This document shows, piece after piece, positions 2,123 to 11,043 of a stretch of DNA of 11,043 nt. The stretch lies in contig CAZSTA010000119.1 of NCBI GenBank assembly GCA_964609495.1, forward strand, positions 1 through 11,043, given 5' to 3'. Below the pieces are notes generated by a model. The model had not been told where the DNA came from and did no database searches. It was given only the letters and a program-made list of their open reading frames with translations. Source of the stretch: an uncultured bacterium. GTDB lineage: Bacteria > CAZSTA01. The first letter of the stretch is position 1. Each line of letters opens with the position of its first letter. The position numbers were made by a program, and so were the translations under genes.

Positions 2123-2632
2123 ATGAGTTCAATATTGTGGGCGCCTTGGCGTATCGATTATATCCTGAGCGATAAACATAATGGTTGTCTCTTCTGTGAT
2201 AAATCTAAGGAGGACAATGATGAGGATAATCTAATCCTGCTCAGGAAGGATACCTGTTTAGTTATGATGAATCGTTATCCTTATAATAACGGTCATCTCC
2301 TTGTCGCTCCTTATCATCATATACCCAGTATAGAGGGACTGACTGTAGAGGAAATGACGGAGTTAATGGTAACGATTAAGGAGTGTATAGAATTGCTAAG
2401 AAGGGTTATGAGCCCTGAGGGATTCAATATCGGAATGAATATCGGGAAGGTGGCCGGAGCAGGGATAGCTGGTCACTGCCATTTTCATATAGTTCCCAGA
2501 TGGAATGGTGATACCAACTTTATGCCGGTTTTAGCTGATGCAAGGGTTATGCCGGAGTATCTTAGAGCGACCTATAAGAAATTGAAAGAGGGGTTATCTT
2601 TTGGCACAGGTGAGAAGCGAACAGGAGGATAG
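2123..2632 (+). CDS. HIT-family protein (Ap4A phosphorylase / nucleotidyl-transferase branch)
   Basis: Histidine-triad motif HCHFHIVPR, and an upstream CLFC..(N)RYPYNNGHLLVAPYHH core typical of the Ap4A-phosphorylase-like HIT subgroup. A GAGGT SD lies 6 nt before the ATG at 2123. Confidence 0.8.
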   Translation: MSSILWAPWRIDYILSDKHNGCLFCDKSKEDNDEDNLILLRKDTCLVMMNRYPYNNGHLLVAPYHHIPSIEGLTVEEMTELMVTIKECIELLRRVMSPEGFNIGMNIGKVAGAGIAGHCHFHIVPRWNGDTNFMPVLADARVMPEYLRATYKKLKEGLSFGTGEKRTGG

Positions 2633-4766
2633 GATATTAAGAGAGCTTAATCCTACTCAAAGAGAAGCGGTAACTTTTGAGCAGGGACCACTATTGATCT
2701 TGGCCGGAGCTGGTAGCGGTAAAACGAGGGTATTAGTTCATCGTCTAGCTTACCTTATTAAATACAGGGGAATTTCCCCCTGGAATATATTAGCTGTTAC
2801 CTTCACCAATAAAGCCGCTGATGAGATGAAGCAGAGGGCGGAGAGATTGCTAGGATATAGCGTCCAAAATCTTTGGGTGAGGACCTTCCACTCCGCATGT
2901 GTGCGAATTCTACGCTATGAGGCGGAGAGGATCGGCTTTCCGCGAGACTTCGCTATCTACGATGCTTCCGACCAATTGACTTTGATTAGAGAATGCCTTA
3001 GAGAGCTAAATTATGATGAGAAGCGATTCTATCCGCGTGCTGTCCTCTCCTATATAAGCCAAGCTAAGAGCGAGTTATTTGGTGTTCAGGAGTTCACCGA
3101 GGCTAAATCGGATAATTTCTTCGAGGGAATCGTAGCTAAGGTTTATGCTCTCTATCAGGATAAATTATGGCAAAGTTCGGCGATGGATTTCGACGATCTG
3201 ATTATGATGACAGTTAAGCTCTGGCGAGATAATCCAGATGTTTTAGATTACTATCAGGAGAAGTTCAGATATATCTTGATAGATGAGTATCAGGATACCA
3301 ATCATGCTCAATATGTATTAGTGAAGCTTTTGGCGGAGAAATATAGGAATCTATGTGTAGTTGGCGATCCAGACCAGAGCATATATGCCTTTCGCGGGGC
3401 AGATATACGCAATATCCTCGATTTCGAGAAGGATTATCCCGAGGCGAAGGTGATCAGGCTCGAACAAAATTATCGTTCCACTAAAAATATCTTAGCGGCG
3501 GCTAGTGAAGTGGTTAAAAATAATATCAATAGGAAAGAGAAAACCTTGTGGACTGAAAATGAGGAGGGAGATCTCACCCTTTATGCTCAACTGAGCAATG
3601 GTATGGAGGAGGCTACTTTTATCTCCGAACAGATAGAGGATCTATATCTTAAAGGGGACAGGAGATATAACGACTTTGTGACCCTCTATCGAACGAATGC
3701 TCAATCCCGCACTTTCGAGGAGGTATTCTCCAGAAGAGGTCTTCCCTACCGAATAGTAGGTAGCCTTGGTTTCTACGAACGCAAGGAGATCAAGGATATA
3801 ATAGCTTATTTGAGGATAATCGCTAATACTTCCAATTCGGTGAGCTTAAAGAGGATAATTAATGTTCCCTCTCGTCATATTGGAGAAGTTACTATTCGGG
3901 GGTTGGAGGATTTCACTTCGAGACAGGGGAAGCCTTTATACGAGGCCCTTCGATATTTAGATGATATAGAAGAGATAAGACCTATGCAACGAAGAGCGTT
4001 GAAGAGATTTCGAGAGATGATCGAGGAATTTAGAAGATGCAAGGATACTCTTAATATAAATCAGTTGCTCTCTATGATCCTCGATAAGACTGGCTATATC
4101 TCTATGTTAGAGGAGGAGGGAACAGTTCAAGCTGAGACCAGAATCGAGAACTTGAAGGAGCTACTAACTGTTACTCAGGAGTTTGCCGCCGAATCGGAGG
4201 GAGATTTAGACTCATTCTTAGAAAGAGTCTCTTTAACCTCGAATGTGGAGAGGGTGCAGGGCGAAGAGTTAGAGGATGCTGTAACCTTGATGACTTTGCA
4301 CTGTGCTAAAGGGTTGGAGTTTCCAGTTGTTTTCATCACTGGTATGGAGGAGGGGTTATTCCCGCACTCTCGATCTTTGAGCAATGAGAACGAGTTGGAG
4401 GAAGAGAGAAGGTTGTGCTATGTGGGAATGACTAGGGCTAAGAAGAAGCTCTATCTTACCTCTGCCTTCCACCGCTTGAGCTTTGGAAACACGATATTCA
4501 ATGCCAAATCTCGCTTTCTCTCCGAGATCCCTGAGCATCTCCTGGGAGATCTGTTAGCTCAAGGTGAGGAAACTACAGAAGATGAGGAAGAATTTTCAGG
4601 GATAATATATAAGGCGGGGGATAAGGTTAGACATCCCTCCTGGGGGATAGGGACGATCGTCAGTCGATCTGGATATGGAGATAATGCGGAGGTCAAGGTT
4701 ATCTTCTCCCAGGGAAATTTAAAGAGATTATTGCTCAAATATGCTCCTTTAGAAAAAGTCGATTAG
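2601..4766 (+). CDS. pcrA: ATP-dependent DNA helicase PcrA/UvrD (superfamily 1A)
   Basis: N-terminal LNPTQREAV ... GPLLILAGAGSGKTRVL (motifs Q and I), DEYQDTN (motif II), and the full set of UvrD/PcrA motifs through LYVGMTRAKKKLYLT (motif VI). The C-terminal GDKVRHPSWGIGTIV Tudor-like tail is characteristic of PcrA/UvrD. The likely start is TTG 2601 (GAGGGG SD at 2588-2593); the alternative is GTG 2610. The start overlaps the HIT gene stop (2630-2632). Confidence 0.9.
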   Translation: MAQVRSEQEDRILRELNPTQREAVTFEQGPLLILAGAGSGKTRVLVHRLAYLIKYRGISPWNILAVTFTNKAADEMKQRAERLLGYSVQNLWVRTFHSACVRILRYEAERIGFPRDFAIYDASDQLTLIRECLRELNYDEKRFYPRAVLSYISQAKSELFGVQEFTEAKSDNFFEGIVAKVYALYQDKLWQSSAMDFDDLIMMTVKLWRDNPDVLDYYQEKFRYILIDEYQDTNHAQYVLVKLLAEKYRNLCVVGDPDQSIYAFRGADIRNILDFEKDYPEAKVIRLEQNYRSTKNILAAASEVVKNNINRKEKTLWTENEEGDLTLYAQLSNGMEEATFISEQIEDLYLKGDRRYNDFVTLYRTNAQSRTFEEVFSRRGLPYRIVGSLGFYERKEIKDIIAYLRIIANTSNSVSLKRIINVPSRHIGEVTIRGLEDFTSRQGKPLYEALRYLDDIEEIRPMQRRALKRFREMIEEFRRCKDTLNINQLLSMILDKTGYISMLEEEGTVQAETRIENLKELLTVTQEFAAESEGDLDSFLERVSLTSNVERVQGEELEDAVTLMTLHCAKGLEFPVVFITGMEEGLFPHSRSLSNENELEEERRLCYVGMTRAKKKLYLTSAFHRLSFGNTIFNAKSRFLSEIPEHLLGDLLAQGEETTEDEEEFSGIIYKAGDKVRHPSWGIGTIVSRSGYGDNAEVKVIFSQGNLKRLLLKYAPLEKVD

Positions 4767-4768
4767 CT

Positions 4769-7201
4769 ATGATCAATGATTTTGGAGGCAGTTCCTCCCT
4801 TGCTAGACGTTTCATAGGCGATATTTACAATATACTTGTTAATATCTCCGCTCCCGAGATAGAAGTTGCCTATCAGAGATGGAAGAGATCTAGTGAGAGG
4901 ATATATGGGAGTAAACTCGATGTTCTTCAAACCTTGAGTGAAGATTATATTCCCGATGAGAAGCCACTCGACTTCAGCTTTTTGCTCTTCGCTCTTCAAA
5001 CTTACTATGCGATCCTGCTCAAATTCATCGCGGTTGACATAGCCTCTCATATCTACAACGAGCCTTCTTTGAGTTATCATCATAATGATGATCACTCAAC
5101 TTGGACAGATGAGCTATTATCCCTGACCGATAGCGAATTGAGGGACGATCTGCTATCTCTGGAGGAAGAAGGTTTACTTAATCAGCTAGGCATAGTTCAA
5201 GATCCTGAAGAGCGACTATTCTCTTGGTATCTGAAGAATAATTACGGTAATGAGCTATGCGATAATTTGAGAGAGGTGATAGCAAAGCTCGGAGAGTATG
5301 AATTAGTCCCTTTAATAGATAATCCAAGGGATCTCTTAAAGGGATTATATCACGATCTTTTTCCTCGCTCTATCCGTCATAAGCTAGGAGAATATTATAC
5401 CCCCGATTGGCTAGCCGAATTAGCTCTGAACGAATTGGAGTATGATGGCGATCCTCATAAACGAATATTAGACCCAGCGGCGGGATCGGGGACGTTTGTA
5501 ATTGCCTCTATTCTGAGAGCGAAGGATTACGCCGAGAGAGAAGGGATAGCTCAAGAGGAAGCTCTAAATCTCATATTAGAAAATATAGTCTGTTTCGATC
5601 TCAATCCTCTAGCAGTATTGATGAGTCGAGTAAATTATCTTCTCGCTTTAGGGCGAGAATTATTTTTATTAGGGAGAAAAATTGAAATACCGGTTTATCT
5701 ATGTGATCCCATATTATCTTCTCACTTTAAGAGAGAAGCTAATTCCTTCGCCGAAGTTGACTCCGAGTCATTCGATTACATAGCAGGAAATCCTCCCTGG
5801 GTGAATTGGGAAGATCTCCCCGATGATTACAAGAGATCGACCAAAGAGATATGGGATAAATATGGTATATTCTCTCATAGCGGACTTAGGGCTAGATTAG
5901 GAGGCTCTAAAGATGATATAGCGATACTTATGACCTATGTAGCGATAGAGCGTTATTTGAAGAGGAAGGGAAAACTTGGCTTCGTAATAACTCGCTCCTT
6001 ATTTAAGACGAAAGGTGGAGGAGAAGGATTCAGAAAGTTCAAGATAACGGATAAAACCCCCATAAGAGTTATTAAGGTGGATGATTTGAGCGAGCTTAAA
6101 CCTTTCGAGGGGGCAAATAACAGGGTCGCTCTGTTTATATGTAGCAAGGGAGAAGCCACTCGATATCCCGTCCCCTATACTTTATGGAGGAGAAGAGATG
6201 GGATATCTATAGATCCTTCATATTCTCTCGAAGAAGTTATCGGACTAACGGATAGAGTGAAACTTGAAGCAAAACCGGTGGATGATTATACTTCACCTTG
6301 GATCACAACTAAGAGTAGTTTTTTTGATCTATTAGAGAGGATGGGAGGAAAGACCGAATATAGAGCTAGAGAAGGGGTAAATACTGGGGGAGCGAATGGG
6401 GTATATTGGATCGAGATCGTGGATGGAGATGATCGATTACTCGTAGAAAATCTCGATCATATAGGGAGGAAGAAGATCCAGAAGTATCGAGATAGGGTAG
6501 AGAAAGATCTTGTCTATCCCCTTCTCCGAGGAAGGAATATCTCTCGCTGGAGGTCGAGTTATTCCTGTTATATAATTATCCCTTGTGATCCTGACGAACC
6601 AAAATTAAGGTTCGCTTCCGCTGAGATGAGCCTGAGATTTCCCAGGACTTACTCGTATCTTTCCCACTTTAAAGATATATTGCTATCGAGAAAATCTAGC
6701 TCTATCCCGAAAAATCCCTTCTATTCTCTTTTCGGGCTTGGTCCCTATACTTTCTCTCCCTATAAGGTTGTTTGGAGGGCTTTATACAAGGAGATTGCAG
6801 CGGTAGTAGTATCAAAGAGGGAGGATCGATTTCTATCTGCCAGATATATTATCCCCGAGCATAATGTTATGTTCATCCCTCTTTGGAATGAGGATGAAGC
6901 CCATTATCTCTGTGCGATATTGAACTCATCCTTAGTTAATTTTGCTATGCGGAGTTATGCCCCTCTGTTCTATTCGACTCACCTCCTCTCCTATCTAAGG
7001 ATACCTAAATATGATCCTGAACTTCGTCTTCATCGAGAGTTATCCTCTCTTTCCTCGAAAGCTCACCTCAACTCCGAGGAAGACGATGAGTTAAGGCATA
7101 TACAAGAGGAATTAGATCTTGTGATATGTAAGCTGTGGAATGTGAAAAAGGGAGAGTTATCCGAAGTTAAGGAGTATCTAAAAGAAATGGTGATTAACTA
7201 G
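4769..7201 (+). CDS. Large (810 aa) gamma-class N6-adenine DNA methyltransferase, Eco57I/MmeI/PglX-like core, with an N-terminal ~200-aa domain of unknown function and a C-terminal putative target-recognition region
   Basis: LGEYYTPDWLAELAL (motif X-like), ILDPAAGSGTFVIA (motif I, SAM binding), and AGNPPWVNWEDL (motif IV NPPW), in the X-I-IV order of gamma-class amino-MTases. About 390 aa follow the catalytic core. The ATG at 4769 sits 2 nt after the pcrA stop, so translation is coupled and there is no separate SD. Confidence 0.8.
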   Translation: MINDFGGSSSLARRFIGDIYNILVNISAPEIEVAYQRWKRSSERIYGSKLDVLQTLSEDYIPDEKPLDFSFLLFALQTYYAILLKFIAVDIASHIYNEPSLSYHHNDDHSTWTDELLSLTDSELRDDLLSLEEEGLLNQLGIVQDPEERLFSWYLKNNYGNELCDNLREVIAKLGEYELVPLIDNPRDLLKGLYHDLFPRSIRHKLGEYYTPDWLAELALNELEYDGDPHKRILDPAAGSGTFVIASILRAKDYAEREGIAQEEALNLILENIVCFDLNPLAVLMSRVNYLLALGRELFLLGRKIEIPVYLCDPILSSHFKREANSFAEVDSESFDYIAGNPPWVNWEDLPDDYKRSTKEIWDKYGIFSHSGLRARLGGSKDDIAILMTYVAIERYLKRKGKLGFVITRSLFKTKGGGEGFRKFKITDKTPIRVIKVDDLSELKPFEGANNRVALFICSKGEATRYPVPYTLWRRRDGISIDPSYSLEEVIGLTDRVKLEAKPVDDYTSPWITTKSSFFDLLERMGGKTEYRAREGVNTGGANGVYWIEIVDGDDRLLVENLDHIGRKKIQKYRDRVEKDLVYPLLRGRNISRWRSSYSCYIIIPCDPDEPKLRFASAEMSLRFPRTYSYLSHFKDILLSRKSSSIPKNPFYSLFGLGPYTFSPYKVVWRALYKEIAAVVVSKREDRFLSARYIIPEHNVMFIPLWNEDEAHYLCAILNSSLVNFAMRSYAPLFYSTHLLSYLRIPKYDPELRLHRELSSLSSKAHLNSEEDDELRHIQEELDLVICKLWNVKKGELSEVKEYLKEMVIN

Positions 7202-7262: not shown

Positions 7263-7688
7263 ATGAGAATTATGGGATTAGATTTTGGAGAGAAGAGAAT
7301 AGGAGTGGCGATAAGCGACCCCTCGGGTCTTATTGCCCAAGGGATCGACGTCATCCAACGGAAAGCCCCCGAAAGGGATATTTCGAGATTAAGAGAGATC
7401 ATAGATGGCTATGGAGTGGAGAAGATAGTAATAGGGATGCCAAGGAATATGAACGGAACTTTAGGGAGAAAAGCGGAAGAGGTTCAGGAGTTTATGGAGC
7501 TATTAAAGGACGAATTCGATATTCCTCTAATGACGTGGGATGAGAGACTATCCACTCATCAAGCGGAAAGAGTATTGATCGAGGCTGATATGAGCAGAGC
7601 TAAGAGGAAGAAGGTTATTGATAGAATGGCCGCGGTAGTGATACTGCAAAGCTATTTGGATAGTAGATCAGCTCGAAGCGATCACTAG
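7263..7688 (+). CDS. ruvX: Holliday-junction resolvase-like putative pre-16S rRNA nuclease RuvX/YqgF
   Basis: MRIMGLDFGEKRIGVAISD... is the canonical RuvX/YqgF N-terminus (GLDxGxKRIGVAxSD) in a ~140-aa RNase-H-fold protein. The ATG at 7263 is 8 nt downstream of GAGGGGGA. The longer ORF from 7212 merely reads through the repeat. Confidence 0.88.
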   Translation: MRIMGLDFGEKRIGVAISDPSGLIAQGIDVIQRKAPERDISRLREIIDGYGVEKIVIGMPRNMNGTLGRKAEEVQEFMELLKDEFDIPLMTWDERLSTHQAERVLIEADMSRAKRKKVIDRMAAVVILQSYLDSRSARSDH

Positions 7689-7754
7689 TTGCTTCGGAAA
7701 TATGATTTTTCAGCTATGATCGTTAAAGAAAAGCCTTGATGAACTAAGACCGCT

Positions 7755-8561
7755 TTATCCTCCTCCTGATAATGCTCCTTTAACTCTTTCTGCTACTATC
7801 CTCGCGATCTCATCCTCACTCACTTCTTGAGACTTCTCCCCCGCGGCAGAATCGCTTATCGCACAAACCTCCCCTCCACATAGTCCGCAGGTCTCACAAC
7901 TAAAATTCGGTCCCTCTATACCTAATTCCTCTCTGATCTCCATAAGCCTGTCCACTTGCTCCTTAGTGAGCGTCCTCACTCCTCCTAGCTGTTTGGCTAC
8001 CAAGCTTATATGAGCGAAATGTTCTAAAGTCTCCATTCGATAGTAGGCTTTATAAACATCGGTCCCGATCGTCATCGCTCCATGATTAGCTAGCAGAAAA
8101 GCATCGGATTTCTTAATATATTCCATAATGGTATCAGGTAGCTCCTCGGTAGAGGGAGTTCCATAAGGGGCTAAGGGGACCGAACCTATAGTTATGACTA
8201 CTTCTGGCAACACACATTGAGCTAGGGGAAGTCCAGCTACCGCGAAACCAGTAGCGATCGGGGGATGAGCATGCACTACCGACTTAATATCCGGTCTAGT
8301 CTTATATACTCGAATGTGAAGTTTTACCTCTGAGGACGGTCTTCGATCTTCTGCTCCCGCAATTTTATTACCATCCATATCAACTTTTACTATATCCCCG
8401 ACCTCCAAGTAGCCCTTGGACATTCCCGTGGGAGTAGTCAATATCTCATTCTCGCTTATCCTGATACTCACATTTCCATCATTAGAGGCCACATAACCCT
8501 TTCCGTATATCCTATGGCACACCTCTACAATATCTTCTTTCAAAACCCATTCATTCGCCAT
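7755..8561 (-). CDS. Class II aldolase/adducin-family protein (L-fuculose/rhamnulose-phosphate-aldolase-like) with a C-terminal Cys-cluster and an encapsulation-peptide-like helix
   Basis: GNVSIR, TPTG, PSSE (metal-ligand Glu), HAHP and ANHG motifs of the FucA/AraD class II aldolase fold occupy residues 1-215. A 53-aa extension follows, carrying C222-x2-C225-x2-C228-x4-C233 and the amphipathic helix DEIARIVAERVKGAL. A strong SD (AAGGAGAGG) precedes the ATG. Confidence 0.85.
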   Translation of the reverse strand: MANEWVLKEDIVEVCHRIYGKGYVASNDGNVSIRISENEILTTPTGMSKGYLEVGDIVKVDMDGNKIAGAEDRRPSSEVKLHIRVYKTRPDIKSVVHAHPPIATGFAVAGLPLAQCVLPEVVITIGSVPLAPYGTPSTEELPDTIMEYIKKSDAFLLANHGAMTIGTDVYKAYYRMETLEHFAHISLVAKQLGGVRTLTKEQVDRLMEIREELGIEGPNFSCETCGLCGGEVCAISDSAAGEKSQEVSEDEIARIVAERVKGALSGGG

Positions 8562-8636
8562 ATTACCTCTCCTTTTATTCTAGCTGGAAAGTTGAAATCG
8601 AAAAGAGAGAAATTCCGCTCCTTCACTTTCCACCCT

Positions 8637-8927
8637 CTATTTTCTAAATACGTATTCTCCGTCAACTTCCCAATAATCTATGATTCCCATAATCAAAGTC
8701 CGAATAGGAGCCCTTTCTAAACCGAAAACTTCCCTAGCAACTCCGGGACCGCTTCCAGCTAAAACTATATCTCCCTCACCTGCTCCCACATAGTCAACTG
8801 CCACCATCGGAGACCCTTTTGGATTTCCCTCTATATCGAGCGGTTGAACGATCATTATCTTCTTATTCTGATAAGCCTCATGTTTAAGGGTTGATACTAT
8901 ATTTCCCACTACTTTGCCGATGAACAA
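8637..8927 (-). CDS. BMC vertex (pentamer) protein, EutN/PduN/CcmL family (BMC-P), paralog 1
   Basis: MFIGKVVGNIVSTLKH...IMIVQPLDIEGNPKGSPMVAVDYVGAGEGDIVLAGSGPGVAR...MGIIDYWEVDGEYVFRK follows the EutN/CcmL consensus (ViGxvvaT, D.vGAG.G..VL...GS.AR, GIvD) and is ~96 aa. It apparently uses a TTG start. Confidence 0.85.
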   Translation of the reverse strand: MFIGKVVGNIVSTLKHEAYQNKKIMIVQPLDIEGNPKGSPMVAVDYVGAGEGDIVLAGSGPGVAREVFGLERAPIRTLIMGIIDYWEVDGEYVFRK

Positions 8928-8968
8928 AGGAGCTCACTTCCCTATTTATAAAAACTTCAAATCAGTAA

Positions 8969-9265
8969 TTACTGTTTCCCACTTTCAACTTCTGAATCGA
9001 TACTATGAACAGAATCTACTATACCAACTATCGCGGCATCTACTGGAGTGAAAACATCATCGAAAGCCTGAGTAGCATCACGACTAGTAACAAAGAACAC
9101 AGTATCACCGTATCCAGCTAGAGCTACCGCATCGGCAGCGATCAAAGGCCTGCCTGATTTTTCTAGGTTTTGATCCAGGGGCTGAACGATCAACAGGCGA
9201 AATCCCTTTAAGCTCTCCTGTTTTCTAGTTGCTACTATTGTCCCAATTACCTTTCCTAACTTCAT
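8969..9265 (-). CDS. BMC vertex (pentamer) protein, EutN/PduN/CcmL family (BMC-P), paralog 2
   Basis: MKLGKVIGTIVATRKQESLKGFRLLIVQPLD...AADAVALAGYGDTVFFVTSRDATQ...PVDAAIVGIVDSV has the same fold signature and is 98 aa. An SD (AGAGGA) precedes the ATG. Confidence 0.82.
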   Translation of the reverse strand: MKLGKVIGTIVATRKQESLKGFRLLIVQPLDQNLEKSGRPLIAADAVALAGYGDTVFFVTSRDATQAFDDVFTPVDAAIVGIVDSVHSIDSEVESGKQ

Positions 9266-9320
9266 ACCCTATCCTCTTTTAGAAAAAAGATAAACCATTT
9301 TCCAATTTATGCTTTCCCGA

Positions 9321-9875
9321 TCACAATACTTTCGCGATTAAGCTCGGATTTGGAGAAGGGATAACAACGCTATCTAAAATCATTCCCCTATCAGTGATCT
9401 CTGATACGCCAGCCTGGATTCCAGCTCTAACATCAGCTACAGTTCCAGTTAAAACTAGGAAGGATTTGCCACCTAAACCTTTCGCTAACCTGATCTCGAT
9501 CAGAGATACATTAGCCGCTTTTGCGGCTGCGTCACCGGCTATTATAGTTGAGGCTACCGAGAAGGTCTCTATTATCCCCAAAGCCTCGACCTCCTCGATG
9601 ATAGTCGTTCCCACGATCGCGGGGAAGATCTGAGGATGAACATTAGGGATTATCAGATCATCCACAACCGTTTCTGCTCCTACCCTCTGCCCTGTCCTAA
9701 CGGAGGTCTCTACTGCGGCTATCTCTCCCCCTATTAGAACAATGTATTTACCAGGACAGACCGGAGCCGCCTCTATCAGATCAACTGTAGCCGCATCCAG
9801 CATCTCATCACAAGCCATCATTCCCCTAGCTATGCTATTGAATTCTACAAGTCCAATCGCTGAATGTATTGCCAT
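9321..9875 (-). CDS. pduT: Tandem-BMC-domain shell protein, PduT-like (BMC-T with putative Fe-S-binding cysteine)
   Basis: At 184 aa it is the same length as PduT. It carries two BMC (pfam00936-like) repeats, AIGLVEFNSIARGM...VDLI and ALGIIETFSVASTIIAGDAAAKAANVSLIEI...GGKSF. The PduT pore cysteine context (ICPGK) is conserved as PVCPGK, and there is a C-terminal SVVIPSP as in PduT. Confidence 0.82.
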   Translation of the reverse strand: MAIHSAIGLVEFNSIARGMMACDEMLDAATVDLIEAAPVCPGKYIVLIGGEIAAVETSVRTGQRVGAETVVDDLIIPNVHPQIFPAIVGTTIIEEVEALGIIETFSVASTIIAGDAAAKAANVSLIEIRLAKGLGGKSFLVLTGTVADVRAGIQAGVSEITDRGMILDSVVIPSPNPSLIAKVL

Positions 9876-9917
9876 TTTATCTCTCCAAATATTGATTGAT
9901 AATTCTTACTTAAACAA

Positions 9918-10781
9918 TTAGCCCTTTAGTCCGGTCAAAGTTATCCCTTTGATGAAATACTTCTGCATAGATACAAACAAAATTATAACTGGAAGAGAGC
10001 ATACTAGAGTAGCCGCCATAAGAAGATTAGTCTTAGTTATGCCGAATTGATTACTATAGAGAGCCAATCCTAGAGGTACTGTTCTTTTACTTAAAGTGTC
10101 AATCACCACTAGAGGCCACATAAAGCTATCCCAGTTCGCCATAAAGGTAAAGATAGATAGAGTAGCTAGAGGGGGCTTACAAAGTGGTAATATAATCCGC
10201 CAGTATATCCCAAATTCGGGGCAACCATCTATCCTTGCGGCATCGATTAAATCTGTAGGGATAGTCTGAATGAATTGCCTCATCAAAAATATGCCAAAGG
10301 CACTTATCAATCCGGGGATGATCAAAGCCGCGAGGTTATCTATTAGATTGAGATATTTCATCATAAAATAGAGGGGAATCATAGTAACTTGAAAGGGGAT
10401 CATCATTGTTGAGAGAATTAGAATAAATAGGATATCACGTCCTTTGAAATTAAATTTGGCGAAGGCATATCCAGTTAAGGAACTGAAGAAGAGAACGCTG
10501 AGGGTCACAGATGTGCCCTGGATTATGCTATTGAGAAAGAAACGGGCAAAGGGTGCATAAGATAACGCTTCAGGAAAGTTCTGTAAAGTAGGCTGGTTAG
10601 GTATCCAAGTAGGAGGATAGGCGATAGTCTCAGGGCCGGGTTTAAAGGCGGTCGATACCATCCACAGGAAAGGACCAGCCATAACTATCGTGAAGAGAGC
10701 AACGATTATATACAAAACAACTTGCCCTGTCCAATATAAAGTTCGAACCTTTCTAACGGATATATCGGATACATCATTCAT
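9918..10781 (-). CDS. Carbohydrate ABC transporter permease (MalG/UgpE-like)
   Basis: Polytopic membrane protein with the EAA-type loop ..DAARIDGCPEFGIYWRIILPL.. and the overall MalG/UgpE topology (287 aa). Confidence 0.85.
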   Translation of the reverse strand: MNDVSDISVRKVRTLYWTGQVVLYIIVALFTIVMAGPFLWMVSTAFKPGPETIAYPPTWIPNQPTLQNFPEALSYAPFARFFLNSIIQGTSVTLSVLFFSSLTGYAFAKFNFKGRDILFILILSTMMIPFQVTMIPLYFMMKYLNLIDNLAALIIPGLISAFGIFLMRQFIQTIPTDLIDAARIDGCPEFGIYWRIILPLCKPPLATLSIFTFMANWDSFMWPLVVIDTLSKRTVPLGLALYSNQFGITKTNLLMAATLVCSLPVIILFVSMQKYFIKGITLTGLKG

Positions 10782-10791
10782 CCTACTACTC

Positions 10792-11043
10792 CTAAAACTC
10801 TATGCCTCGACCGAAATACTTGATCTGTAATATAGTTAAAAAGAGGACAATACCAAAGAGAACGAAAGCCATAGAACAAGCTAATCCCATCCGGTAAAAG
10901 CGAAAAGCGGATTCGTATATATATTGGACTAGCACTCTAGTAGCATTACCTGGGCCACCGTTAGTCATAATGAAGATCTGAGTGAAGACTTGAAAAGAGC
11001 CAATTACCCCGGTTACCATTACGAACAGAATCGGCGTTGGACG
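10792..11043 (-). CDS. Carbohydrate ABC transporter permease (MalF/UgpA-like), C-terminal fragment (the 5' end lies beyond the window)
   Basis: Reverse-strand translation is open to the window edge (..RPTPILFVMVTGVIGSFQVFTQIFIMTNGGPGNATRVLVQYIYESAFRF...). The GGP..T..L..YIY motif is typical of the C-terminus of MalF/UgpA permeases. The stop is 11 nt before the next permease start. Confidence 0.8.
   Translation of the reverse strand, partial: RPTPILFVMVTGVIGSFQVFTQIFIMTNGGPGNATRVLVQYIYESAFRFYRMGLACSMAFVLFGIVLFLTILQIKYFGRGIEF

Follow-up and report, generated by a model that had tools for sequence, protein, structure and literature searches.

The 11,043-nucleotide window analyzed here (positions 1 to 11,043 of contig CAZSTA010000119.1, from the uncultured bacterial assembly GCA_964609495.1) encodes on its reverse strand a class II aldolase associated with bacterial microcompartments (BMCs). 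Past its catalytic domain the protein continues into a C-terminal tail made up of four closely spaced cysteines, a linker and the helix of an encapsulation peptide (EP). The cysteine-rich stretch 222-233 is the form taken in this lineage by a cysteine motif with which the encapsulation extension of BMC aldolases begins. The open reading frame (ORF) is unbroken and is preceded by a good ribosome-binding site (AAAGGAGAGG). Coordinates of the aldolase features and of the neighbouring shell genes are collected in Table 1.

The Pfam family PF00596 matched residues 9-186 with an E-value of 1e-49 and a score of 169 bits, against a gathering cut-off of 22.2. In a BLASTP alignment with Escherichia coli FucA (215 residues), E78, H97, H99 and H160 aligned with FucA E73, H92, H94 and H155, which we take to be the zinc ligands of that enzyme, and all four positions were invariant in two alignments, of 86 and of 128 relatives. 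An AlphaFold2 (AF2) model with a predicted local distance difference test score (pLDDT) of 88.5 superimposed on E. coli FucA structures (1fua, 1dzv and others) with a target-normalised template modelling score of 0.91 and a root-mean-square deviation of 2.0 Å over about 210 columns. The profile score, the ligand-equivalent residues and the three-dimensional fold place the protein in the aldolase superfamily (PF00596, FucA-like fold). It is not a FucA sensu stricto: all NCBIfam/TIGRFAM FucA models scored far below their cut-offs (91 against 400 bits for TIGR01086). FucA Y209 faces L213 of the aldolase, and FucA Y113 falls in a gapped stretch where the aldolase has no tyrosine. With the FucA models below cut-off and the tyrosine pair not retained, the substrate specificity of the aldolase is therefore not assignable.

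The end of the fold could be located closely. The AF2 model contains helices at residues 169-191 and 200-212, and residues 211-220 were predicted with a pLDDT of about 85. The segment from 187 to 221 includes the conserved residues R210, G214 and G217. FucA L211 lies opposite I215 in the BLASTP alignment, which puts the last residue of FucA at about N219 and C222 about three residues past the canonical aldolase end. No solved relative found by sequence search of the Protein Data Bank (PDB) reached beyond about residue 209, no NCBIfam model scored over its cut-off or extended past residue 212, and Foldseek matches to the AF2 model were confined to the catalytic domain.

The aldolase has cysteines at positions 15, 116, 222, 225, 228 and 233, and the last four form the cluster. 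A first-pass annotation, made from the letters of the sequence, had flagged nucleotides 7758-7910, corresponding to residues 218-268, and had placed four cysteines past the aldolase end, exactly where they were found (nucleotides 7863-7898). Its description of a linker, an amphipathic helix and a GGG tail was also correct, although the helix it placed at 7773-7817 was off by 3 nucleotides: the core of the helix, (E)DEIARIVAERVKGAL(S), has DEIARIVAERVKGAL at 7770-7814. In the AF2 model the terminal helix at 249-265 has a pLDDT of about 87, and residues 225-244 are disordered (pLDDT below 50). Structure prediction, which had been proposed as a check, thus gave a confident terminal helix with a hydrophobic face but no confident four-cysteine fold. 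On a helical wheel, I252, A263, V256, V260, A253, L264 and A257 share one face; tested by shuffling, the hydrophobic moment was only weakly significant (z 1.55). The helix also matches the family consensus LIxxITxxVLxxL in its C-terminal position and hydrophobic pattern.

Bioinformatic work has described class II aldolases of BMCs with an EP at the C-terminus (PMC4594438), and the window protein belongs to this known class. The terminal amphipathic helix, the flexible linker, the BMC locus and the lack of such a tail in BMC-free homologues mark the tail as a bona fide encapsulation extension, with targeting itself predicted. The earlier view that linker and amphipathic helix form an encapsulation architecture is upheld by the distribution of the tail, which occurs in BMC-linked relatives and not in short BMC-free ones.

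The tail could in principle be an artefact, such as a frameshift fusion with a small downstream ORF, or a random cluster of cysteines in a low-complexity sequence. The low-complexity nature of the linker is the one point in favor of this explanation. The fusion, which the first-pass annotation had named as a possible refutation, is excluded by the unbroken ORF and by a homologue from another sample (P0121), which is 95% identical with 13 differences, keeps the whole cysteine motif and linker, and differs in the tail at two residues only, near its end. The layout of domain, cysteines, linker and helix also recurs in hundreds of homologues. With the protein's own six cysteines shuffled 200,000 times, a 12-residue window with at least four of them arose in 0.3% of cases (probability 0.003). 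Artefact and chance are effectively refuted.

Table 1 Features of the aldolase gene and of the neighbouring BMC genes in the window.
Feature	Position	Strand	Evidence
BMC-associated class II aldolase with C-terminal encapsulation extension	7755..8561	(-)	complete ORF, 268 aa + stop
Aldolase_II catalytic domain, residues 9-186	8004..8537	(-)	Pfam envelope, FucA alignment
End of aldolase fold: last helices and tail, residues 187-221	7899..8003	(-)	AF2, FucA alignment, conservation
Cysteine-rich motif C222-E-T-C225-G-L-C228-G-G-E-V-C233	7863..7898	(-)	translation, conservation
Low-complexity, poorly conserved linker, residues 234-248, AISDSAAGEKSQEVS	7818..7862	(-)	AF2, Cys density
Encapsulation-peptide helix EDEIARIVAERVKGALS, residues 249-265	7767..7817	(-)	AF2 helix, helical wheel, family consensus
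GGG C-terminal tail	7758..7766	(-)	not conserved: GEG in P0121
BMC-P (EutN/CcmL) vertex protein, directly upstream of aldolase	8637..8927	(-)	PF03319, E 2e-27
Second BMC-P vertex protein	8969..9265	(-)	PF03319, E 4e-27
PduT-type tandem-domain BMC-T shell protein, 184 aa	9321..9875	(-)	two BMC domains, PDB 3nwg/3pac/3n79

A cysteine motif at the start of the encapsulation extension

Conservation of the motif was followed in an alignment of 86 aldolase relatives with 48-59% identity. Past residue 192, only four positions were conserved in at least 90% of these sequences: G193 was invariant, and L206, R210 and C222 were near-invariant, so that C222 is the sole such position past R210. Each of the 120 nearest homologues has at least one tail cysteine, almost always eight residues after the conserved Gly214. 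Three cysteines is the commonest count (56 sequences), followed by four or more (27), two (20) and one (17), and 83 of the 120 thus have at least three. The commonest pattern is Cx2Cx2C, and glycine follows the second cysteine in 31 of the 33 tails that show it, giving CxxCGxC. The exact Cx2Cx2Cx4C of the window aldolase was unique among the 120. Insofar as CxxCGxC is common and Cx2Cx2Cx4C is not, C222-C228 represents the shared core and C233 a lineage-specific addition. The cysteine cluster, missing from ordinary aldolases, is the rule in BMC-associated ones. The first-pass annotation had called a cysteine cluster ahead of an EP non-standard, which these counts contradict. The alignment it had proposed as a check of conservation confirmed the CxxCGxC core and identified the exact spacing as lineage-specific; its refuting condition, that encapsulated homologues should lack the spacing, holds for that exact spacing only.

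The cysteines are confined to one part of the tail. In 98 EP-type tails that passed a strict helix filter, cysteine made up 9.3% of the roughly 25 residues at the tail start (positions 5-30), compared with 1.2% of the catalytic domain, 1.6% of the rest of the linker and 0.05% of the EP. The length and sequence of the linker were variable among homologues, and the motif itself differs between lineages. Those with four close cysteines use the spacings Cx2Cx2Cx4C, Cx4Cx2Cx2C, Cx2Cx2CxC, Cx2Cx3Cx4C, Cx9Cx2Cx3C and Cx2Cx7CxC. Moorella tails carry 'HPGCxxCGAC', KSB1 tails Cx2Cx7C, and gut Clostridia tails 'CPNAKxGKPSCHxCGGxC', in which Cys234, Cys237 and Cys241 (P0272 numbering) reach at least 90% conservation in a second alignment (A2) with 128 mixed-family rows. 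A group of tails with 'C[DN]LCGN' may be of the PVM type. Ignavibacteriota and Bacteroidota tails have one cysteine, in 'CDATPMPS', and Vicinamibacterales tails contain 'APAPIC…CQVVQAP'.

The Vicinamibacterales (ACI-like) tails are unusually conserved, with 'APAPIC', 10-21 residues, 'CQVVQAPS..G.RLVPD' and a final EP, 'EIRLTYRELTALIEDAV'. Their aldolase loci (L017, L020-L023, L025, L028, L029, L031, L038, L040, L043, L046, L056, L068, L075 and L077) have one BMC-H and three BMC-P genes, and PduS and BMC-T are not nearby.

The presence of a cysteine at the junction between domain and tail was compared for long and short tails in a pool of 345 distinct sequences. It was found in 242 of 265 long-tailed (EP-type) aldolases (91%) and in 16 of 64 short-tailed ones (25%), with a Fisher p of 2e-26 that treats kin as independent and counts some truncated genes as short tails. 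Neighbourhoods were compared in 80 genome loci recovered with the aldolase family alignment. In these, long-tailed aldolases lie in loci with BMC-H, BMC-P, BMC-T, AldDH, PduL, PduS, DeoR and acetate kinase. Three short aldolases of 220-223 residues (loci L013, L053 and L072) instead neighbour an FGGY kinase, and have no shell genes, tail, EP or cysteine. Two of them end within a few residues of the cysteine position, with 'HPGYRE' (L013) and 'KNPLIH' (L072) where BMC forms have 'HPGC'. The anchor cysteine and the tail thus seem to have been acquired together. Other short relatives that end near the 'HPGC' point are P0139 ('HPGFKRYRK'), P0158, P0159 and P0184, which are known from the proteins alone.

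Cysteine motifs were also found on other cargo enzymes. A search with the phosphotransacylase PduL from a related locus (L007, 7349-8065) yielded 92 homologues with an N-terminal extension (P0393-P0447 among them), 29 of which have at least three cysteines, and 22 of these 29 carry CxxCGxC. This motif (for example 'MIPRSPSCRECGLCEVPREEDLSRLVESVVREV' or 'SCRECGLCEV') stands 5-12 residues ahead of the EP helix LVESVVRxVV, and the N-termini had been called independently by the source annotations. 'CLECGLC' of the L007 PduL compares with 'CETCGLC' of the window aldolase. In two SPU-like loci (L083 and L084), which contain DeoR, three BMC-P, an RpiB-like protein, PduS, BMC-T, PduL, AldDH, BMC-H, aldolase and AckA, the aldolase, PduL and RpiB-like protein each have a cysteine motif beside the EP. 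The aldolases carry 'CESCx7C' and 'CDECx7C'. The PduL proteins (L083, 4366-5058; L084, 4982-5773) carry 'CRECGLC' and 'CGGCERC', and in the RpiB-like proteins an N-terminal EP helix is followed by 'CECGGQCC' or 'CGCGGC' (L083, 1691-2455; L084, 2046-2840). The motif is accordingly conserved in BMC aldolases, enriched in EP-bearing proteins and present on three cargo families. Its occurrence on PduL and RpiB-like tails implies that the cysteines belong to the encapsulation extension and not to aldolase chemistry.

The AldDH proteins of L083 and L084 have an EP without cysteine. An N-terminal EP linker with a CxxxC pair, 'ACSGAC' or 'TCQIGAC', was seen in AldDH of Moorella (L001, 11738-13210; L004 and L005), and in almost all non-Moorella lineages AldDH has no cysteine in the EP linker.

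It might be argued that the first cysteine alone matters, as the tail of the catalytic domain, and that the others are neutral, lineage-specific decoration. C222 is indeed the only one of the four to reach 90% conservation, the model is fairly confident up to about residue 221, and the exact four-cysteine pattern is peculiar to the window lineage. This explanation does not account for the cysteine density at the tail start, the repeated independent arrival at three or four cysteines, the conserved glycine of CxxCGxC, the strong conservation of all four cysteines in the gut-Clostridia subfamily or the recurrence of the motif on the tails of PduL and RpiB-like proteins, and we regard it as very improbable.

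In the literature, aldolase EP linkers were tabulated with 5.5% cysteine against 0-2.8% in other EP linkers (Table 2 of PMC4594438), and the text of the same paper describes the EP linker as without compositional or sequence conservation. Full-text literature searches returned no description of cysteines in aldolase EP linkers, that table being the only trace. A conserved cysteine motif that accompanies EPs is, as far as the searchable literature goes, undescribed.

Neighbourhood of the aldolase gene

The BMC-T protein matched PDB entry 3nwg with an E-value of 5e-60, in addition to the PduT entries 3n79 and 3pac. Its Cys40 (codon 9756-9758), a putative [4Fe-4S] ligand, lies within V-C-P-G-K-Y; the PduT-type cluster-ligand motif is defined as C-[PSA]-G-[KRS]-[YF] (PMC6325248). 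Tandem BMC domains, a length of about 184 residues and the pore-cysteine motif C40-P-G-K-Y make the protein PduT-type, although the NCBIfam model eut_PduT scored 124.5 bits, under its 250-bit cut-off. A PduT-type shell gene three genes upstream of the aldolase, as first annotated, is therefore supported by the 3nwg match and the C40-P-G-K-Y motif.

A sugar-type ABC permease gene ends 42 nucleotides ahead of BMC-T. The BMC genes of the contig are BMC-T, two BMC-P and the aldolase only, with no BMC-H, AldDH, PduL or PduS. The nearest counterparts of the window BMC-T and second BMC-P come from two loci (L050 and L027), which share the order BMC-T, BMC-P, BMC-P, aldolase; there PduS precedes BMC-T. 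With its BMC-T, two BMC-P and aldolase genes, the contig has the appearance of a satellite-type fragment. Three possibilities exist for the 9321-11043 side: a rearranged locus, a satellite-like one, or one that runs on past the contig end. A scan for promoters and terminators over 7600-10000 gave no informative signal.

Several other genes lie on the forward strand. An ORF at 824-1612 encodes a PD-(D/E)XK / Cas4-like nuclease with C17 near the N-terminus and a C-terminal C-x4-C-x2-C-x5-C. This pattern presumably corresponds to the iron-sulfur (Fe-S) 'iron staple' of Cas4/AddB-type nucleases, and the nuclease plausibly carries a genuine four-cysteine cluster elsewhere in the window. The 157-residue product of 1634-2107 has a hydrophobic N-terminus, a lipobox-like 'LGCPS' and no Pfam match. 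The region 2601-7201 contains an ORF for a 721-residue UvrD/PcrA-like helicase (identified by reading the sequence), followed directly by an 810-residue methyltransferase with Eco57I, N6_Mtase and TaqI_C-like matches, which resembles either an orphan methylase or a restriction-modification enzyme of type IIG/IIL.

Possible roles of the tail thiolates and comparison with known systems

The interpretation we favor, with a probability of roughly 45%, is that the tail cysteines form a metal-thiolate site, which would act as a staple within one tail or as a bridge from one cargo molecule's tail to the next. The thiolates would most likely ligate a metal centre, either Zn2+ or a small Fe-S cluster. 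In four-cysteine tails such as that of the window aldolase the centre could be completed within one chain, and in tails with fewer cysteines it could be shared between chains. The metal might staple an otherwise disordered tail, or bridge the tails of adjacent cargo molecules, and in either case could help the EP helix at 249-265 to gather cargo and dock it to the shell. That several lineages reached four close cysteines with different spacings is expected if a tetrahedral thiolate site was being completed. Metal ligation is favored over disulfides because an odd count, three, is the commonest and many of the hosts belong to taxa known as anaerobes, Moorella and the gut Clostridia among them. 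A metal staple is preferred over an electron-transfer centre because the spacing varies too much.

Metal binding and the stapling or bridging role are inferred, and a number of observations weigh against this reading. AF2 confidence over the motif was low, with a pLDDT below 50 from residue 225 of the window aldolase and values of 68, falling to 52 and 44, over the motif of the best-conserved gut-Clostridia subfamily, and in neither of the two AF2 runs was an autonomous knuckle fold predicted. The motif falls outside all Pfam and NCBIfam models. Some clades have a single cysteine (Ignavibacteriota/Bacteroidota, with 'CDATPMPS', and Actinomycetota) or two distant ones (Vicinamibacterales), so that a site shared across chains must be assumed for them, and the residues kept after the lone cysteine point to a specific contact with protein more than to a simple metal loop. 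Cysteine is missing from most PduL and AldDH EPs, including most Clostridial ones, and the motif is therefore an accessory that is not required for encapsulation generally.

Profile searches gave mixed results. A 23-column profile of the CxxCGxC region matched zinc fingers and ferredoxins in the PDB, all non-significantly, with Pirh2 CHY ('CENCGIC') and Wiz at the top (E 0.17 or higher). When six representative tails were searched against Pfam at E-values up to 10, nothing was found on the window tail, and another tail gave sub-threshold matches to Fer4_9 and zf-CXXC. C116, in the active-site loop, was considered as an obligate cysteine partner and rejected; it is enriched among sequences with tail cysteines, yet missing from 113 of them.

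The first-pass annotation had speculated on a link between the cysteines and the Fe-S cluster of the PduT-type protein. Under the corresponding alternative, CxxCGxC, with or without a further cysteine, would bind a [4Fe-4S] or [3Fe-4S] cluster and take part in electron flow within the compartment, along with PduS and the PduT-type shell protein. The core with its near-invariant glycine is the first half of a ferredoxin motif, and the 2[4Fe-4S] ferredoxins 1dur, 1clf, 1fca and 1fdn were among the best, non-significant, profile matches; zinc fingers ranked equal or higher in the same search. The window spacing fails the ferredoxin pattern CxxCxxCxxxC[PEG], having four residues before the last cysteine and alanine after it. 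CxxCxxCxxxC occurred in none of the 98 EP-type tails, and the window tail gave no Fer4 match in Pfam. In favor of a cluster, peptides of 16 residues, so-called ferredoxin maquettes, can bind one, and several host taxa are known as anaerobes. The C-terminal tetracysteine extension of PduK, proposed as an Fe-S binder, offers a precedent (PMC6325248). Most related loci contain PduS and PduT-type genes, and the window has a PduT-type gene of its own. However, cysteine number did not co-vary with the presence of PduS or BMC-T (PduT) in the 80 loci: one-cysteine aldolases often come directly after PduS and BMC-T genes, and two or three cysteines are kept without PduS or BMC-T in L002, L024 and the Vicinamibacterales loci. 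The spacing and number of cysteines vary among orthologues more widely than is typical of electron-transfer clusters, and aldolase, phosphotransacylase and the isomerase-like protein need no electrons. The link to PduT thus found no support, and a redox module is considered unlikely.

In a further alternative the tail is a thiol switch, through which encapsulation or redox state would govern activity or assembly. Its cysteines would reversibly ligate the catalytic zinc of a neighbouring subunit or form disulfides, and the aldehyde-producing enzyme would become active only once its tail had joined the compartment core. C222, about three residues past the equivalent of the FucA C-terminus, is where the FucA lid would sit. 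Residues 207-215 of FucA, including Y209 and R212, presumably form a mobile tail that closes over the adjacent active site, and the FucA mutant structures 1dzv and 1dzx were among the fold matches. The anchor cysteine is kept even where every other cysteine is lost, and some BMC-free relatives have tyrosine at its position, as in 'HPGY' of L013. PduL is a metal-dependent enzyme, and redox-sensitive cysteines are known in carboxysome assembly proteins. The PduL motif, however, is located right at the N-terminus, on the outer side of the EP and a long way from the domain, and the motif also occurs on an RpiB-like protein, which is not known to have a catalytic metal. Disulfides are unlikely in strict anaerobes and fit poorly with three as the commonest cysteine count, and none of the structural models puts the tail close to the active site. 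We consider a switch of this kind quite improbable.

The metal-thiolate interpretation has a more far-reaching form, in which the motif would act as a second, inorganic encapsulation signal, the thiolates beside the EPs of aldolase, PduL and RpiB-like cargo sharing metal ions or Fe-S clusters between chains or supplying the missing fourth ligand of the PduT pore cluster. This is distinctly unlikely. If true, metal-thiolate bridges would cross-link the metabolosome core or anchor it to the shell, and metal or redox state would then govern its assembly and perhaps the activation of enzymes.

EPs are the main handle on understanding and engineering the loading of enzymes into BMCs, and their current picture is that of an amphipathic helix with a featureless linker. 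A conserved cysteine motif that travels with the EP, on class II aldolase (a signature enzyme, and among the most widespread of these) and on two or more further cargo families, adds to this picture and suggests that cargo organization has an additional layer dependent on metal or redox state. Heterologous expression of BMC aldolases, or the reuse of their tails as targeting tags, may then depend on metal supply or oxygen. For the window aldolase itself, the four-cysteine cluster is not unique and nothing ties it to the PduT cluster. The finding as first noted is downgraded accordingly, and the broader EP-adjacent cysteine pattern is a testable lead.

The EP-bearing aldolases of PVM, PVM-like, GRM5, SPU-like and ACI metabolosomes (PMC4207490, PMC4594438, PMC8217296) share PF00596, a linker and a helix of about 17 residues with the window aldolase, and both stand beside BMC shell genes. 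Loci related to the window contain DeoR, AldDH, PduL, PduS, BMC-T and acetate kinase, and by this gene content the relatives of the window aldolase are in PVM-like/SPU-like loci (PMC4207490, PMC8217296). The window contig, in contrast, has no BMC-H or core enzymes, lies behind an ABC permease and resembles the 'two BMC-P plus aldolase' satellite loci (PMC8217296). Whereas known EP linkers are described as unconserved (PMC4594438), the linker in the window family starts with a conserved cysteine motif.

Likenesses to the motif itself can be drawn from several metal-binding proteins. The CxxCGxC core, including its glycine, is common to the ferredoxin [4Fe-4S] motif CxxCxxCxxxCP, but the fourth cysteine of the window motif is at +5 and followed by alanine, where that of ferredoxin is at +4 and followed by proline, and no ferredoxin fold surrounds it. 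Zinc knuckles and intermolecular zinc hooks such as the CxxC hook of Rad50 are short CxxC(G)-based thiolate sites, completed in a single peptide or across two chains, as the window motif might be. The second CxxC of a knuckle is missing in the window motif and no fold is predicted. Closer to hand, the Fe-S shell proteins PduT and GrpU place cysteine-ligated metal centres in the same organelle. The PduT cluster is built from one cysteine per chain (PMC6325248), a precedent for the cross-chain site needed by one- and two-cysteine aldolase tails, but its cysteine sits in a folded pore loop on the symmetry axis and the aldolase motif in a tail predicted to be disordered. The tetracysteine extension of PduK likewise puts four close cysteines at the C-terminus of a BMC protein and is a proposed Fe-S binder (PMC6325248). 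PduK is a BMC-H shell protein, the window protein is a cargo enzyme whose motif is coupled to an EP, and the likeness carries no claim of homology. The PduK tetracysteine extension and the shared-ligand cluster of PduT are the nearest conceptual precedents for the aldolase motif (PMC6325248).

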